From an uncultured Candidatus Saccharibacteria bacterium (GTDB lineage Bacteria > Patescibacteriota > Minisyncoccia > Phycocordibacterales > SIBU01): a DNA stretch of 64,000 bases. Of the stretch, positions 3,560 to 13,208 are shown one piece after another. The notes under the pieces were generated by a model that was given only the letters and a program-made list of their open reading frames with translations, was not told the origin of the DNA and made no database searches. A program made the translations under genes and the position numbers. The stretch spans positions 1,653-65,652 of the forward strand of contig CAYSEN010000001.1 of NCBI GenBank assembly GCA_964430335.1, written 5' to 3'. The stretch's first letter is position 1. Each line of letters starts with the position of its first letter.

Positions 3560-4035
3560 TGTAACAACCTAGAAATCCCGATACCGACCGTGATTGAAAT
3601 GTTTAGAGACTCTTTCTTCCCTTTCATCGGTATCTCAGCCACAACATCACACTTTTTTAATACAGATTGTGAAAGTCCTTCCACTTCATTACCAAATATG
3701 AAAGCAACAGGATTTTTTATTTTAACCTCTCGATAATCTACGGACTGCGAAGCTATCTCGAAGGCAACTTTGTAAACACCTTTTTTGTTTAGAAAAGAAA
3801 AAACATCAGCCATCTTTGGAAAATGCATCCAAGCAACAGTTTTCTCGGCACCCAACGACACCTTAGCAAAATCACTCCTCGCCCTACCAAAACGATCAAG
3901 AGGTGCGGGTGTAACACCAACCAAAATCACGCATGGCACACCAAGACAGTCAGCAGTTCTGAATATCGAGCCCACATTGTGCACGCTTCGCACATCAGAT
4001 AGGACTATGTAGGAATCGTAATTAACGTCATTCAT
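3556..4035 (-). CDS. SpoU/TrmH-family RNA 2'-O-methyltransferase
   Basis: VHNVGSIFRTADCLG, FIFGNEVEGLS and LNISITVGI motifs characteristic of SPOUT methyltransferases. Confidence 0.8.
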   Translation of the reverse strand: MNDVNYDSYIVLSDVRSVHNVGSIFRTADCLGVPCVILVGVTPAPLDRFGRARSDFAKVSLGAEKTVAWMHFPKMADVFSFLNKKGVYKVAFEIASQSVDYREVKIKNPVAFIFGNEVEGLSQSVLKKCDVVAEIPMKGKKESLNISITVGIGISRLLQ

Positions 4036-4112
4036 GGCCCAACCTTATCAAACCGAAATGAAATATCAAGCATGTGCATGCCTATTTAAATTACTTATGC
4101 TAAAATATTGAA

Positions 4113-4496
4113 ATGTTAAGCATTTTCCCAACATTATTTACTTACAGCCTAGTAGTACCTTTGGTTTTTAGAATTGTCATCGGATTGGTATTTCTAACTC
4201 TCGGTTATAAAAGTATCAAAAGCGGTCTGGTGTCACCTTCTCTCAGCACAAATCCTATTGTTTCTAAAATTGTTATTGCGGTAGAAATTGCAGGAGGAAT
4301 ACTGCTAATCATTGGCCTTTGGACACAAATTGTAGCCATGATTTTGTCTGCTCTTTCTTTGCTTGGAGTACTAAAGAAAAATCCTGAAGGAGCTGCTGTT
4401 GTAATTCCAAAAGAAGTACTAGCACTTTTATTACTAATTACCGCTTCTCTAATTTTTCTAGGACCTGGTTTCTACGCTTTTGATTTACCTCTATAA
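4113..4496 (+). CDS. DoxX-like small integral membrane protein
   Basis: 127 aa with four hydrophobic helices; N-terminal pattern (LVFRIVIGLVFLTLGYKSIK) resembles the DoxX family. Confidence 0.5.
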   Translation: MLSIFPTLFTYSLVVPLVFRIVIGLVFLTLGYKSIKSGLVSPSLSTNPIVSKIVIAVEIAGGILLIIGLWTQIVAMILSALSLLGVLKKNPEGAAVVIPKEVLALLLLITASLIFLGPGFYAFDLPL

Positions 4497-4545
4497 ACTT
4501 GAATTAAACTGGCTTTTGAAGTATCTTACTCATGAGTTTATTTAT

Positions 4546-4618
4546 GCGCCCATAGCTCAGTTGGTAGAGCACCTGCCTTTTAAGCAGAGGGTCGTAGGTT
4601 CGATTCCTACTGGGCGCA
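4546..4618 (+). tRNA. tRNA-Lys (anticodon UUU)
   Basis: Cloverleaf read by eye: acceptor GCGCCCA/TGGGCGC, D arm GCTC..GAGC, anticodon loop CTTTTAA, T arm GTAGG-TTCGATT-CCTAC. No encoded CCA. Confidence 0.95.
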
Positions 4619-4623
4619 CAAGA

Positions 4624-4655
4624 CGAAAAAATCCGGACTGCTCCGGATTTTTTCG
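4624..4655 (+). terminator. intrinsic terminator-like hairpin after tRNA-Lys
   Basis: cgaaaaaatccgga-ctgc-tccggattttttcg, a perfect 14-bp stem with A/T tracts. Confidence 0.7.
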
Positions 4656-4659
4656 TACC

Positions 4660-4705
4660 TGTGCGAGCCGGAGCCATGTTTCGCTACCAAGCGAAACGGG
4701 CGAGG
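4660..4705 (+). repeat. 46-nt direct repeat, copy 1 (contains hairpin GTTTCGC-TACCAA-GCGAAAC)
   Basis: Identical to 4899-4944: tgtgcgagccggagccatgtttcgctaccaagcgaaacgggcgagg. Confidence 0.95.
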
Positions 4706-4843
4706 CAAGGTCATGAAAATTTTCGAGTGGCGACGAGAAAATTATTCCTGACCACAGGCGAAATGACCAAGCAGGTCTAAATGACCTGCGTGTAGGAATC
4801 GAACGGCGGAGTATAAAATTTTCAGCAGAAAATTTTTCGAGCC

Positions 4844-4886
4844 GGTGACCAGACAAAACTTTTTGACGAAAAAGTTTTAGTCGAGG
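4844..4886 (+). repeat. conserved tRNA-trailer hairpin motif, copy A (GGTGACCAGACAA-stem/loop-TTAGTCGAGG)
   Basis: Shares both flanks with 62061-62105, while the distal stem differs by fully compensatory changes. Confidence 0.8.
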
Positions 4887-4898
4887 GAGATTTCCTAT

Positions 4899-4944
4899 TG
4901 TGCGAGCCGGAGCCATGTTTCGCTACCAAGCGAAACGGGCGAGG
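4899..4944 (+). repeat. 46-nt direct repeat, copy 2
   Basis: Identical to 4660-4705; 239-nt period. Confidence 0.95.
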
Positions 4945-5026
4945 AGGGGTCGCGAGTTTCGAGGCTGACGAGCCGAAGAAAACTTGTGACCACAAGAAAG
5001 TTCACTTAATGAACTATGTTTCTACC

Positions 5027-5428
5027 CTACTCCCTCCCAATCAAATAAACCCCGAGTAATTTTCTAAAATATTCCGTTTCGGGATTAAAACACGCTTCTT
5101 TTATATGCAATAAAGGATGTGACTCCGGTGAATACTCATAATGCGCTCGGATTTCTCCATCAATAAAAAGTCTAATGTGGTACTGAAAAATCTCTTTATC
5201 GATTTTTCTCATACTCAAAACCTCTCCGGGATCTTTCCATGCAATTTTTGCCAATTCAAAACCTTGGTCAAACAAATACGCCTCTAAATCCAATCTGTTG
5301 TAATTGGCGTTTAAATGACCTAGTAAATATTTTTGTCTGAAATCATGAAAACCCAATTTTTCAACCGTTCGTATGATCGGTGGCCAAACCTGATAGGCCA
5401 AATTCCAAAAGAATCGGATTTTTTCCAT
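5027..5428 (-). CDS. hypothetical protein
   Basis: 133-aa ORF with host-like composition, tightly packed upstream of the holA-like gene. No motif recognised. Confidence 0.5.
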   Translation of the reverse strand: MEKIRFFWNLAYQVWPPIIRTVEKLGFHDFRQKYLLGHLNANYNRLDLEAYLFDQGFELAKIAWKDPGEVLSMRKIDKEIFQYHIRLFIDGEIRAHYEYSPESHPLLHIKEACFNPETEYFRKLLGVYLIGRE

Positions 5429-5437
5429 ACAAGTATA

Positions 5438-6154
5438 TTACACGCTCAATATAAATCTCTCAAGACGACTAATAAAATCCACCTCCCCTCTGTGGGCATC
5501 GTGATAAATTGAAACCAGCTCTTGCGCAAATTTACTCAAATCATTATCACTAAAATTTTTCGCATATCTAAGCGCCTTGTTAAAAACAAAAGGGTTTAAA
5601 CCAGATTCGGTAGCGTTTTTAGTTTCTGATGAAATAATCATATTTTTAATCTGCCAAAACAAAATTCCAGAAATTTCCTCTGGTGTGGCCCCACTTCTTA
5701 TGGCTTTCTCATAAATTACCCAGAGTTTTTTCCTATTTCTTTCTCCTAAGGCATCGGCCAAAGCAAAGGTGTTAAATGGTTCAACTTTTTTTTCTTCTTT
5801 ACCCTCGAAGGACTGCACCTTATCGGCAAATTTACCGACCGCATCTAGAGTTTTTTTATCAACAACCTCGTTTATAAAAATAAATACGTTTTCTGAATTT
5901 TTTAGCAAATCCAGCTTTTCAATCACAAAATCTTTAATTTCCTTATTCTCAAAAATCCTGCTAGCAAGAACTATAAATTTTCTTTCAAAAAGCCCCTGTG
6001 AACCAAGAAATTCCTCAAACCTTCCTTCGCTCCAATTGTCCTGGTCAATCTTAAAAAGCTCGGCATCTGGTTTTCTTTTCTGCATAACCGAAACCAGTTC
6101 AAGCGCCTTCGCCCTAGCTGCGTCCATATTTTTTCCGTAAAGAAAATAAAGCAT
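5438..6154 (-). CDS. holA: DNA polymerase III delta subunit-like (short)
   Basis: N-terminal MLYFLYG... pattern and overall helical profile resemble HolA; sits next to polA. Shorter than canonical HolA. Confidence 0.5.
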   Translation of the reverse strand: MLYFLYGKNMDAARAKALELVSVMQKRKPDAELFKIDQDNWSEGRFEEFLGSQGLFERKFIVLASRIFENKEIKDFVIEKLDLLKNSENVFIFINEVVDKKTLDAVGKFADKVQSFEGKEEKKVEPFNTFALADALGERNRKKLWVIYEKAIRSGATPEEISGILFWQIKNMIISSETKNATESGLNPFVFNKALRYAKNFSDNDLSKFAQELVSIYHDAHRGEVDFISRLERFILSV

Positions 6155-9973: not shown

Positions 9974-11650
9974 ATGGTAATTCAATTTGACGAGGACAAA
10001 CAAAATCAAAAACTCGACACTCTCCGAAAAAAAGAAGAAGAAGACTTCGCAAAGGACACCGCTGAAAGACTTGGACTTGAATACATAAACCTAATTCTTG
10101 TACCCATAAACACCGAGGCACTAAAATTGGTGCCCGAGCAACAAGCCAGACAGGCGAAAATTGCCCCTTTTAACATTGTCGGAAAAAAAGTTCAGGTTGC
10201 AGTCTCCTCCCCCGAATCAAGCGCTACAGCAGAGGTTTTAGAATCACTATCGAAAAGCGGTTACAGCTTGATCGTGTTTGTAACAACTCACGAAAGCCTA
10301 GAAAAAGCTTGGGGCTACTACAAAGATCTTTCATACTCAACAGAATCGACCGCAGGAGCGCTCGACGTTTCAAGTGATGAAATCGGTCAGTTTCTATCTA
10401 AGGTACACTCCATTAAAGATATTGGTACCCTCATTGAAGATATACTTGCTCAGAAAAAAAGTTACAGAATCTCTCGCTTGATTGAGATCGTCCTTGCCGG
10501 AGCAATAGCAACACACGCTTCGGATATTCACATAGAACCAGAAGAAGGTTACGCAAGGCTCCGCTACAGACTTGATGGGGTTTTAAACGATGTTCTCAAA
10601 TTTGATAAGGAGACTTTTGACTTAGCCCTATCTAGAATCAAATTGCTTTCTGGTCTAAAGCTAAATGTTAAATCTGAAGCTCAGGACGGAAGATTTAGTG
10701 TAAAAATAAACGGTGATGATATTGAAATAAGAACCTCCCTGCTCCCAGGAGCTTACAGCGAATCAGTGGTAATGAGAATTCTTAACCCTAAATCGATCAA
10801 TGTGCCGATCGAATCGCTCGGCATTAACCCAAAACTTTTGGAAATTTTGCTACATGAAATTAGTAAACCTCACGGTATGATTCTCACCACAGGTCCTACA
10901 GGTAGCGGTAAAACTACAACGCTCTACGCTTTCCTTAAAAAAATTCACACTCCAGACATAAAGATTATTACGATTGAAGATCCTATCGAGTATCACTTAC
11001 CAGGAATTGTGCAAACTCAAACAAATTCTGAGAAGGGGTACACTTTCCTAGAAGGATTACGTAGCGCGCTTCGACAAGACCCAGACGTGATCATGGTTGG
11101 TGAAATCAGAGACAGCGAAACAGCTGAAATCGCAGTGAACGCCGCCGAAACAGGACACTTAGTGTTCTCTACTCTTCACACTAATACTGCAGCTGGTACA
11201 TTCCCACGCCTCGTAGACCTCGGAGTGAATCCAAAAACCATGGCCTCAGCAATCAATGTATCGATGGCTCAAAGATTGGTAAGAACCCTGTGCAAGGATT
11301 GTAAAAAAGAAGTTGCGATTACCGGAAAAGAAAAAACTCTGATTGATAACATCGTCGCCTCCCTTCCAGATCAAAGCGAAGTTACAAACACTGAAAAAAT
11401 GTGGGTTGAAAATGGTTGTGACAAATGCAATCACACAGGTTTTAAAGGAAGAGTCGGAATATATGAGGCAATTTTAATGAATGAAGTAATAGAAACCGTA
11501 GTAAGAGAAAATCCTAGTGAAAGAGAAATTCAAAAAGCTGCTCTACCACAAAAAATTCCGACAATGAAACAGGATGGAATCATAAAAGTCCTAAACGGTA
11601 CGACTTCCTTAGGAGAATTATCAAGAATAGTCGACCTAGAAAAAGAATAA
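9974..11650 (+). CDS. pilB: type II secretion/type IV pilus assembly ATPase (GspE/PilB family)
   Basis: Walker A GPTGSGKTTTLYA, Asp box, Walker B VIMVGEIRD, His box LVFSTLHTN, tetracysteine CKDC...CDKC. Confidence 0.85.
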   Translation: MVIQFDEDKQNQKLDTLRKKEEEDFAKDTAERLGLEYINLILVPINTEALKLVPEQQARQAKIAPFNIVGKKVQVAVSSPESSATAEVLESLSKSGYSLIVFVTTHESLEKAWGYYKDLSYSTESTAGALDVSSDEIGQFLSKVHSIKDIGTLIEDILAQKKSYRISRLIEIVLAGAIATHASDIHIEPEEGYARLRYRLDGVLNDVLKFDKETFDLALSRIKLLSGLKLNVKSEAQDGRFSVKINGDDIEIRTSLLPGAYSESVVMRILNPKSINVPIESLGINPKLLEILLHEISKPHGMILTTGPTGSGKTTTLYAFLKKIHTPDIKIITIEDPIEYHLPGIVQTQTNSEKGYTFLEGLRSALRQDPDVIMVGEIRDSETAEIAVNAAETGHLVFSTLHTNTAAGTFPRLVDLGVNPKTMASAINVSMAQRLVRTLCKDCKKEVAITGKEKTLIDNIVASLPDQSEVTNTEKMWVENGCDKCNHTGFKGRVGIYEAILMNEVIETVVRENPSEREIQKAALPQKIPTMKQDGIIKVLNGTTSLGELSRIVDLEKE

Positions 11651-11666
11651 CTTGCAAAAAATTGAA

Positions 11667-11700
11667 CAATACCGGCTCGACATGTGTCGAGCCGGTATTG
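11667..11700 (+). terminator. intrinsic terminator after the pilB-like gene
   Basis: caataccggctcgaca / tgtcgagccggtattg near-perfect palindrome, followed by a T-rich tail. Confidence 0.8.
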
Positions 11701-11807
11701 CTTTTCCTATTTTTCCTGTTGAAAACGTTTTTTTCGATTGCCTTTAAAAAAAAGCGATAGTACTATAAGTGCAGTAGTTTAATTTCAGAAGAAAGTTCTT
11801 CCAAAAC

Positions 11808-13165: not shown

Positions 13166-13208
13166 AAAATAAAAGCCGCCGCGACAAGGTCGCGGCGGCT
13201 TTTATTTT
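13166..13208 (+). terminator. intrinsic terminator after ruvB
   Basis: aaaataaaagccgccgcga-caagg-tcgcggcggcttttatttt. Confidence 0.85.

Follow-up and report, generated by a model that had tools for sequence, protein, structure and literature searches.

A conserved three-way-junction RNA module arrayed in three copies behind tRNA-Lys and found as a probable 3' trailer of other Patescibacteria tRNA genes

What is the repetitive and highly structured stretch of DNA that directly follows a tRNA-Lys gene on contig CAYSEN010000001.1? The window analyzed here comprises 64,000 nt of this contig, and its region 4656-5026, which is bounded by tRNA-Lys(UUU) and by the stop codon of a converging open reading frame (ORF) of 133 aa (5027-5428), had been described in a first-pass annotation as tandemly accreted copies of a small structured element. 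According to our analysis, three copies of a conserved structured RNA module are arrayed here, and this module would form a 3' trailer of tRNA genes in Patescibacteria. The module family is widespread and well supported, and apparently it has not been described so far. Judged from sequence and structure models, the module may act in cis as a trailer for tRNA 3'-end processing or termination, a reading to which we assign a probability of roughly 40%.

The most conspicuous feature of the region, a perfect direct repeat of 46 nt (TGTGCGAGCCGGAGCCATGTTTCGCTACCAAGCGAAACGGGCGAGG), is present exactly as it had been annotated, with two exact copies in the window at 4660-4705 and 4899-4944; the number of matches expected in shuffled sequence is 0.00, even if three mismatches are tolerated. 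The similarity stretches over 53 nt with 94% identity, and the copies are spaced by 239 nt. The hairpins GTTTCGC/GCGAAAC, CAGGTC/GACCTG (4771-4788) and AAAATTTTC/GAAAATTTT (4815-4836), which had been listed before, are found in the sequence, as is AAAACTTTTT/AAAAAGTTTT (4855-4878). The CGAGCCGG box, searched as CGAGCCGGAG with at most one mismatch, occurs five times in the window versus 1.25 times expected, whereby four of the five occurrences lie in the array region. The GC content of the region is 0.48-0.51 compared to about 0.34-0.39 in the flanks, and its plus strand folds with -142.2 kcal/mol (z = -7.9 versus shuffled sequence), the minus strand with -120.1 kcal/mol (z = -4.6). An antisense ORF of 119 aa (4557-4916), which overlaps the tRNA in antisense, is present and is spurious, in agreement with the earlier judgement.

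A covariance model (R2) was built from metagenomic units and run unfiltered over all 64 kb. R2 found exactly four units in the window, three in the array and one behind tRNA-Arg(UCG), and the next match has an E-value of about 0.9; all significant matches sit after a tRNA. The three units in 4659-4995 and the unit at 62007-62117 match the models of the family, which is defined here by the helices P0, P1 and P2, the CGA and RGG linkers, the GGA/GA loop, a position directly 3' of a same-strand tRNA and a 5' strand that is complementary to the tRNA end. The idea of a tandemly repeated small structured element was right in spirit and is partly supported, since the model finds three units, but the definition of the module was wrong, as it is a three-way junction of about 98-105 nt and not a hairpin of 46 nt. 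The conserved unit of about 98 nt reads GUGCGAGCCGGAG-(hairpin)-CGAGGCnGGGUC-(hairpin)-UGACCACAAG and consists of a closing helix, P0, and two arms, P1 and P2, with highly conserved junction bases. P0 is UGUG/CACA, covarying to UGUC/GACA. The CGA linker (J0/1) leads from P0 to P1 and the RGG linker (J1/2) from P1 to P2. P1a is GCC/GGC, or also GAC/GUC, ACC/GGU or GGC/GCC, and is followed by an internal loop of 5'-RNA opposite 5'-GA and then by the P1b/c hairpin. P2 is stacked on P0 without any linker; one of its pairs is a conserved G·U, one A is bulged out, and the loop is usually GACG. The minimum free energy (MFE) structure of unit 1 alone is this three-way junction. The 46-mer represents the 5' half (P0 5' strand, J0/1 and all of P1) that is common to units 1 and 3, the first 46 nt of unit 3 being those of unit 1, while their P2 arms differ (unit 3 loop GACG at 4968-4971). 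With this fold some details of the annotation had to be revised. The hairpins that were thought to fill the spacer are P2 arms and unit 2, and the suggested hairpin cttgtg/cacaag near 4985 does not exist, as its loop would have only 2 nt and the bases in question are the P2 and P0 3' strands of unit 3. Likewise, the two CGAG...CGAGG frames that were taken to be alike are different things, whereby the frame of the 46-mer brackets P1 and the one at 4838-4888 brackets P2 of another subtype.

Related loci (numbered with an L) were gathered by means of PolA, which yielded 80 loci from Patescibacteria (Parcubacteria, Taylorbacteria, Paceibacterota), the highest PolA identity being 76%. The relatives of the window are Paceibacteria or "Taylorbacteria"-like. 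Homologues of window 4623-4756 were identified by blastn and motif scan directly behind tRNA-Lys in L001, L005, L071 and L055, and L007 holds one too, its locus ending before any tRNA. A degenerate pattern scan of the metagenome collection led to at least 120 loci, and model searches then gave 100 + 46 units. With duplicates removed, the set comprises at least 153 non-redundant units from related genomes and metagenomes, among the matches listed. The family is therefore not unique to this locus, and nearly all of its units lie behind tRNAs. A same-strand tRNA is located at most 60 nt upstream in 92 of the 153 units, with a mode of 37 nt, and another 41 units, which are later copies of arrays, lie 61-600 nt after one. 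Altogether 133/153 units are downstream of a same-strand tRNA. The chance of finding a same-strand tRNA end within 60 nt upstream is only about 0.5% (calculated from 286 tRNAs in 1.70 Mb). The remaining 20 units have no called tRNA within 600 nt. Contig ends account for six of them, and inspection of six others revealed tRNA 3' remnants ahead of several and, ahead of one, a tRNA missed by ARAGORN. The host tRNAs are mainly those for Lys (CUU, UUU), Ile, Val, Arg and Leu. In 15 cases the unit lies between two same-strand tRNAs, the second of which is only 1-45 nt away. As such gaps leave no room for a promoter, we infer, if only indirectly, that the units are transcribed within tRNA precursors; the several linkers that have no U-tract were also counted toward co-transcription.

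Two further observations concern the linkage to tRNA genes. Locus L003 contains at 159-359 two tandem "minimal" units with a period of 122 nt and a P1 of GCC-UGACGA-GGC, which follow a terminator-like hairpin and have no tRNA nearby, and thus represent a rare exception. In addition, ARAGORN called a "tRNA-Stop(tta)" adjoining units in L028 (6386-6459), L033 (10311-10384) and L151. A suppressor tRNA-Stop(UUA) was rejected, as the anticodon loop CUUUUAA is that of tRNA-Lys(UUU) read one base out of register.

The proposed fold is supported by covariation. RNAalifold analysis of a MAFFT alignment of seven units revealed compensatory changes in 19 of 33 pairs and recovered two arms, and the addition of further sequences resolved the fold into the three-way junction. 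Among 100 metagenomic units, 94.9% of the cells are standard-paired, compared to 68.9% in shuffled controls and 32-50% with slid partners, and 33 of the 35 pairs show changes on both sides. P0 covaries, with G-C in 93/153 units and C-G in 39/153. Of 97 distinct sequences, 86 have G·U at one P2 pair, and at another pair 22 G·U were counted. Read from the opposite strand, these pairs would turn into A·C mismatches, which identifies the tRNA-sense strand as the functional one; the more stable folding of the plus strand in the array region agrees with this. The bulged A is present in 99 of the 100 units, the loops GACG (P2) and A-N-Y-A (P1) are conserved, and the junction is kept across units of 34-71% GC.

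Between tRNA and unit there is a linker that forms a hairpin. Its 5' arm consists of the last acceptor bases of the tRNA, the discriminator base and the trailer (e.g., CGCA|CAAG...) in essentially every first unit, so that tRNA bases 70-73 and the trailer pair with the 5' strand of the unit; in the window, C70-A73 of tRNA-Lys (4615-4618) are part of the hairpin. The 3' arm ends in the P0 5' strand plus J0/1 (...CUUGUGCG). The unit starts with GUGCG because this is complementary to the tRNA end, and the start becomes GUCCG where the tRNA ends in CGGAC. Correspondingly, a tRNA ending in CGGACA is followed by a unit starting with UGUCCG, and the variable trailer covaries too. The P0 5' strand plus CG exactly complements the local tRNA-end 6-mer in 76 of 92 first units, compared to 28% with shuffled partners. 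The hairpin has a median of 21 bp, the linker is 35-40 nt long in 76/92 loci, and the loop is CUGC in 57/92, CUUC in 7/92 and CUAC in 4/92. The CUGC loop was not found in other terminators of the 64-kb window. Thus, the linker hairpin belongs to the conserved element. The one behind tRNA-Lys looks like a bidirectional terminator that is lengthened at its base into the tRNA. By eye, the 3' arm of many linkers contains an AC that is conserved and unpaired and lies 5-6 nt ahead of GUGCG (e.g., window 4657-4658, L001, L005, L147 and L131), which suggests a specific recognition feature of the hairpin. Long, perfect palindromic, terminator-like hairpins of 15-20 bp with A-/U-tracts on both sides also occur at 11665-11702 and 13166-13208 of the window, and these have no CUGC loop.

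The same four P0 5' bases (UGUG or UGUC) thus have two alternative partners, namely the tRNA end and the unit's own 3' end. MFE predictions show an extended hairpin without P0 as long as the tRNA is attached, and a closed P0 once the RNA is cut at A73, so that a conformational switch would be conceivable. One could argue that P0 is just the trace of a target-site duplication. This origin was rejected, as the L001 unit ends in CACAAG although its trailer is CUCGU, and P0 is therefore a real helix.

Unit 2 and the unit behind tRNA-Arg differ from units 1 and 3 (type A) and are termed type B; six relatives of this type were aligned by eye. In type B units P0 is made from the T-arm of the local tRNA, the reverse complement of which supplies the 5' strand, while a T-arm-like copy supplies the 3' strand. 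The flipped P1a reads CGGC/GCCG, or CAGC/GCUG in L003, and the base of P2 is different. The GCGA linker of type A aligns with UCGAA of type B, the T-loop complement. Unit 2 contains a 13-nt perfect complement to the tRNA-Lys T-arm (an inverted repeat), has the flipped P1a CGGC/GCCG and carries its GACG loop at 4865-4868. The hairpin at 4768-4792 ahead of it is the counterpart of a second hairpin that precedes type B units elsewhere (L108, L136, L151, L164). At the tRNA-Arg locus, 61995-62013 is a 19-nt perfect antisense of the last 19 nt of the tRNA, confirmed as exact reverse complement; here, no U-tract hairpin lies between tRNA and unit, and the antisense runs straight into the type B unit. 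This antisense could compete with cloverleaf folding. Alternating arrays of both types occur in L151 and L164, and the order is reversed (B, then A) in L122. At the end of some type B units there is a copy of the tRNA 3' end, after which a new linker hairpin begins.

Further trailers were noticed at other sites. Behind tRNA-Gly(GCC), window 62246-62386 holds a third kind of trailer, which comprises a reverse complement of the acceptor end (GGGTA), then a hairpin, then the T-arm in reverse complement (GGGAGAATCGAA) and a small core with three helices. At its end, 19 nt of the tRNA 3' end are repeated exactly and in direct orientation (GATTCTCCCTACCCGCACA; 62246-62264 and 62368-62386). The family models did not detect this trailer. 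In other loci, starts of the form ...UCGAA-GCC... lie behind Gly, Ser, Cys and Trp tRNAs. L001 has a leader-side counterpart, a 66-nt insert (10455-10520) upstream of the orthologous tRNA-Lys, which starts with a duplicate of the tRNA 5' end (GCGCCCATAGCT) and can form a long hairpin (GCCCATAGC...GCTATGGGC).

The number of units per array is variable. Among 123 arrays there are 98, 21, 3 and 1 with one, two, three and four model matches, respectively. The copy-number variation at the tRNA-Lys locus that the annotation had proposed to look for exists among near-identical strains. Eight JGI contigs from other samples (L202-L206, L212, L215 and L216; samples 33000453xx), which represent a sister strain, carry the window locus with one unit instead of three. 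Their flanks are about 1% divergent from the window (30/2709 and 31/3402 mismatches), and their intergenic region corresponds to that of the window minus exactly 239 nt (4706-4944). The remaining 291 nt show 0 mismatches despite the divergence of the flanks, and the one-unit allele consists of the 46-mer plus the P2 of unit 3.

The difference between the two alleles lies exactly at the 46-nt repeat, where a collapse or duplication during assembly would place it, and the array might therefore be an assembly artefact; in the same manner it could be a scar of decayed integrative elements (att sites) or pseudo-tRNA debris, to which the exact 19-nt repeat behind tRNA-Gly and the acceptor-end copies at the 3' ends of some units would fit. 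The extra 239 nt of the window are unique and family-typical, with a bona fide type B unit and a distinct P2, and therefore the window is not an assembly duplication, one of the possibilities that the annotation had named as its own refutation. Moreover, the A-B-A order recurs in L151 and L164, and the breaks of independent Logan contigs fall within the 46-mer, at 112-120 nt from the ORF, as is expected if the repeat has two real contexts in those samples. The short one-unit allele itself may be an assembly collapse. Scars would not give 33/35 covarying pairs and a conserved junction over more than 150 loci, the Rfam tRNA model misses the units, and there is no integrase nearby. In a test for att scars only CACA(A/G)G was repeated in the array region, and a true 19-nt repeat was seen behind tRNA-Gly. 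Taken together, scars, debris or artefact are hardly credible as explanation of the region.

A more serious alternative is that the unit is a selfish non-autonomous repeat or mobile element aimed at tRNA 3' flanks, in which the antisense segment serves as guide, the fold is needed by the mobilising machinery or an RNA intermediate, and there is no role for the host. This would account for the patchy presence among orthologous tRNA-Lys loci, the one to four copies per array and the strain polymorphism, as well as for the few units that lie away from intact tRNAs, next to tRNA 3' remnants or in L003 (159-359). In L109 (2990-3460, minus strand), a 137-bp block made up of the upper linker hairpin and the unit is even repeated in tandem behind tRNA-Ile, with three copies that are 100% identical and the start of a fourth, which is evidence for a very recent tandem amplification. 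Similarity tracks tRNA identity only weakly, as the nearest relative of a unit lies behind a tRNA for the same amino acid in 43/92 cases versus about 30% expected, which hints at exchange between tRNA genes, and the end sequences of the units derive from the local tRNA. However, units at different tRNAs of one genome are only 36-61% identical, which speaks against a recent burst and, together with the relationships among the units, points to an old, multi-paralogue family with occasional exchange. No terminal inverted repeats were found, and the 3' end CACAAG, kept in L001 despite its differing trailer, is no target-site duplication; for these reasons, and as 4/4 window copies and 133/153 units lie downstream of a same-strand tRNA, a classification as MITE or REP was rejected. 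No transposase, integrase or reverse transcriptase adjoins the array, and blastn of phage and plasmid records gave no match. A phage origin was likewise rejected, as the only match to a viral contig (L081) is a chance pattern match in coding-like sequence and was not recovered by the model. The orientation and the distance to the tRNA are invariant, and the junction is kept across 34-71% GC. REP/BIME, BOX, ERIC and Correia repeats are scattered intergenically in both orientations. The units resemble them as short structured intergenic modules that are sometimes tandem and vary in copy number between strains, but differ in being confined to tRNA 3' ends in one orientation and at one distance and in having no terminal inverted repeats. 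Overall, a selfish repeat appears rather unlikely to us.

Coming back to the reading as a cis-acting trailer, the element would be composed of a tRNA-end-pairing hairpin of about 37 nt and a three-way junction of about 98 nt. It would be transcribed on the sense strand together with the tRNA and act in cis on the precursor, whereby the hairpin of fixed length would set the junction module beside the tRNA 3' end. The hairpin might function as partial terminator and at the same time as RNase III-like processing stem, while RNase Z and RNase P would cut at the flanking tRNAs. Removal of the tRNA would free UGUG/UGUC, P0 would close and a compact RNA would be left. Unequal recombination between units would add or remove copies, and the 46-mer would then be the trace of one recent event.

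Several points weigh against this reading. The tRNA-Lys orthologues in L073, L078 and L079 have neither hairpin nor module, and the one-unit allele indicates that additional copies can be dispensed with; the module is therefore not essential for maturing every tRNA. A run of at least five U, as in efficient intrinsic terminators, is present in 59/92 linker hairpins, and such linkers could stop most transcripts before the module. The linkers of L142, L085, L070 and L159 have only 9-12 bp, which is too short for a classical RNase III site; these also lack a U-run. Furthermore, the roughly 20 conserved unpaired bases exceed the needs of a passive processing stem, and their conservation points to a specific ligand, protein or catalysis. 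Finally, the apparent conservation is inflated, because a number of conserved positions were already set in the metagenome pattern and because the model served to fit the large alignments. With regard to the last point, the independent alignment of seven units and the slid controls argue against a fold that is an artefact of pattern or model fitting. As to termination, the U-run of the linker is paired with an A-tract and the stem runs 6-10 bp further into the tRNA, 4623-4656 was not listed as plus strand terminator in a terminator scan of the window, and the 15 units with a tRNA directly downstream require read-through.

The position behind and between tRNAs could also mean that the product acts in trans, as a small RNA or scaffold of a ribonucleoprotein, for which the tRNA operon would supply the promoter and the release by RNase P and RNase Z, and whose junction would bind a partner. 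In units that end 1-14 nt before the next tRNA, RNase P would set the 3' end. The conserved GACG and A-N-Y-A loops, the bulged A (99/100) and the junction suggest a specific partner, and there are several paralogous copies per genome. Such a trans-acting RNA leaves unexplained, however, why the 5' strand matches and covaries with the local tRNA end and trailer, and why P0 of type B is made from the local T-arm, and the paralogues within a genome are very divergent outside the junction. We therefore regard it as clearly unlikely. Small RNAs from spacers and trailers of tRNA operons, such as 3'ETS-leuZ of Escherichia coli, are short, poorly structured, lineage-restricted sponges without a conserved three-way junction, tRNA-end pairing or tandem arrays. 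The unit is like them in being encoded behind or between tRNAs, and it would be co-transcribed and released by tRNA-processing nucleases, but its fold and junction are conserved over more than 150 loci.

The t-elements of plant mitochondria and the MALAT1 mascRNA are structured landmarks for RNase P and RNase Z. Similar to these, sequences of a tRNA recur in type B units, which take up T-arm and acceptor parts of their neighbour, and P2 stacks on P0 without a linker as the T-arm does on the acceptor stem of a tRNA. In contrast to them, the unit is undetected by tRNA models, and its 5' strand is antisense to the tRNA 3' end instead of being a copy of the 5' acceptor strand. A tRNA-like structure was rejected, as ARAGORN and the Rfam tRNA model match real tRNAs only; in our own reading there is a topological resemblance to a D-armless tRNA. 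The RNase III stems of bacterial rRNA operons enclose one RNA. The linker hairpin has in common with them the long, near-perfect stem (median 21 bp) from the flanks of a stable RNA, often with an internal loop or bulge, but it connects two successive RNAs, the first by its end and the second by its start, carries the conserved CUGC loop, has terminator-like A- and U-tracts in most loci and comprises only 9-12 bp in some cases.

It might also be that the three-way junction is a small self-cleaving ribozyme at the tRNA 3' end, which would cut the precursor and separate tandem copies. A hepatitis delta virus (HDV) ribozyme placed behind an RNA defines its 3' end, and the unit would be a natural counterpart. 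With about 100 nt, about 20 near-invariant unpaired junction bases, many copies per genome and tandem arrays, the unit resembles small ribozymes such as hammerhead, twister, hatchet, pistol and HDV-like ones; the hairpin geometry sets the junction directly beside the discriminator base, and units can abut without spacer (L001 CACAAG|GUGCG). Nevertheless, no known ribozyme model matches at E-values up to 10 beyond a weak hammerhead type II match (4928-4981; 17.6 bits versus a gathering score of 37, E = 2.2). This match, which reads CUGACGAG...GAAAC, was rejected, as helices II and III cannot form, having about 2 bp each, and CUGACGAG is the P2 loop region of unit 3. The unit linkers of 3, 3 and 0 nt (CGA/RGG/none) also differ from those of hammerheads with about 7, 4 and 1 nt, and the presumed cut after A73 would be inside a perfect helix, which is unfavourable for in-line attack. 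A ribozyme is quite improbable.

The alternative pairing of P0 brings up still another explanation, namely a riboswitch-like maturation checkpoint, in which a ligand or protein bound to the junction would stabilise P0 and free the tRNA 3' half, while otherwise the tRNA end would be sequestered. The unit indeed offers three mutually exclusive segments (tRNA end, anti-tRNA strand and tRNA-end mimic) with an aptamer-like domain between the last two, and type B antisense covers up to 19 nt of the tRNA, which is enough to compete with cloverleaf folding. But the common type A switches only 4-6 bp at the base of a 21-bp hairpin, and the same core lies behind many tRNA species, so that the signal must be general, and no ligand is suggested. 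In addition, we know of no riboswitch located downstream of its target. A checkpoint of this kind is very improbable.

Table 1. Positions of the array, its parts and the related tRNA-Arg locus in the 64,000-nt window
Feature	Position	Strand	Remarks
tRNA-Lys(UUU), host gene	4546..4618	+	ARAGORN; Rfam tRNA 75.6 bits
Linker hairpin	4615..4665	+	Inverted repeat 15/15 bp; extended pairing in folds
Linker hairpin, 5' arm	4615-4637		tRNA end CGCA + trailer CAAG + A-tract
Linker hairpin, loop CTGC	4638-4641		
Linker hairpin, 3' arm	4642-4665		U-tract, then ...CCTGTGCG
Unit 1, type A	4659..4757	+	R1 111.1 bits, E = 7e-26; R2 101.6 bits
R2 match	4658-4762		E = 1e-22
Unit 1, P0	4659-4663 with 4753-4757		
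Unit 1, J0/1	4664-4666		CGA
Unit 1, P1a	4667-4669 with 4704-4706		
Unit 1, internal loop	4670-4672 opposite 4702-4703		GGA opposite GA
Unit 1, P1b/c hairpin	4673-4701		
Unit 1, J1/2	4707-4709		AAG
Unit 1, P2	4710-4752		
Inter-unit hairpin CAAGCAGGTC-TAAAT-GACCTGCGTG	4768..4792	+	Inverted repeat
Unit 2, divergent, type B	4793..4897	+	R2 53.6 bits, E = 4e-11
R2 match	4796-4896		E = 4e-11
Unit 2, P0 5' strand TAGGAATC	4793-4800		Reverse complement of tRNA-Lys T-arm
Unit 2, P0 3' strand GATTTCCTA	4889-4897		T-arm-like copy
Unit 3, type A	4898..4995	+	R1 93.3 bits; R2 81.1 bits
R2 match	4897-5000		E = 9e-18
Unit 3, P0	4898-4902 with 4991-4995		
3' hairpin GTTCA-CTTAA-TGAAC after last unit	5000..5014	+	Sequence, fold
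tRNA-Arg(UCG)	61905-61976		
tRNA-Arg locus of the same family	61995..62117	+	Type B unit 62007-62117; R1 36.7 bits, R2 53.5 bits
R2 match	62007-62117		E = 5e-11

Downstream of the last unit, the hairpin at 5000-5014 may be a weak terminator, whereby its role is uncertain. No plus strand ORF follows the array, and the next gene converges; on the minus strand, holA-like and polA genes are followed by the 133-aa ORF.

The comparison with known families did not yield an assignment. An E-value scan of 4000-5600 with Rfam 15 gave only the tRNA and its antisense artefact, the same scan of 10 further unit loci gave only tRNAs at significant scores, and the element is not described in Rfam 15 or in the literature searched, which included a paper on tRNA introns of Patescibacteria, subscription-only literature excepted. 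The artefact deserves a remark. The Rfam model Plastid-ycf2 5'UTR (RF04354) matches the antisense of bacterial tRNAs with 23-47 bits, below its gathering score, including window 4546-4619 on the minus strand and tRNAs of other loci. The model appears to contain antisense tRNA, which would be a quirk of the database and not biology. RT-11 RNA (RF03106) reached 20.1 bits versus a gathering score of 143.5 (E = 0.15), which is chance level, and the neighbouring ORFs contain no reverse-transcriptase domain. The GUGCG start behind a terminator-like hairpin recalls group IIC introns, which have a 5' GUGYG and insert after terminators. A group IIC intron fragment was rejected, as neither Intron_gpII nor group-II-D1D4 matched at E-values up to 10, and the start is accounted for by its complementarity to the tRNA end. 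TIGR units have 36 nt and a box C/D (PMC12045711). A CRISPR or TIGR array was rejected, since the units here have about 100 nt and their variable parts are self-complementary stems and not spacers; the flanking ORFs contain no cas or tas domains. Repeats of a ToxI-like type III toxin-antitoxin system were rejected as well, as 98/123 arrays consist of a single unit. Within the fold, two tertiary motifs were discarded, namely a kissing interaction of the linker loop CUGC with the P1 loop AGCA, for which no covariation was seen by eye in L001, L005, L071 and the window, and a K-turn in the GGA/GA loop, as the bulged strand has no 3-nt bulge followed by GA.

What would the module mean for the organisms that carry it? 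Much of the diversity of bacteria belongs to the Patescibacteria, whose genomes are minimal and which can hardly be studied by experiment, and their tRNA maturation has hardly been described. It is on the whole unlikely that the junction module represents a new catalytic or switching RNA class for tRNA biogenesis in the ultra-small candidate phyla radiation (CPR) bacteria, be it as self-cleaving ribozyme or as signal-responsive switch of the tRNA 3' half. If this were true, these bacteria would encode part of the 3' maturation of their tRNAs as RNA in cis, separately for each gene, and if the module were catalytic or ligand-responsive, it would be a compact new RNA tool. A purely selfish repeat that is guided to tRNA ends would be out of the ordinary as well. 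The tRNA-processing hypothesis is testable with synthetic RNA alone. With a covariance model, hundreds of intergenic regions of CPR genomes that now look "empty" would receive an annotation. As the module is conserved, covarying, appended to tRNAs and paired to each tRNA's own 3' end, selection would be expected to act at the stage of the tRNA precursor.

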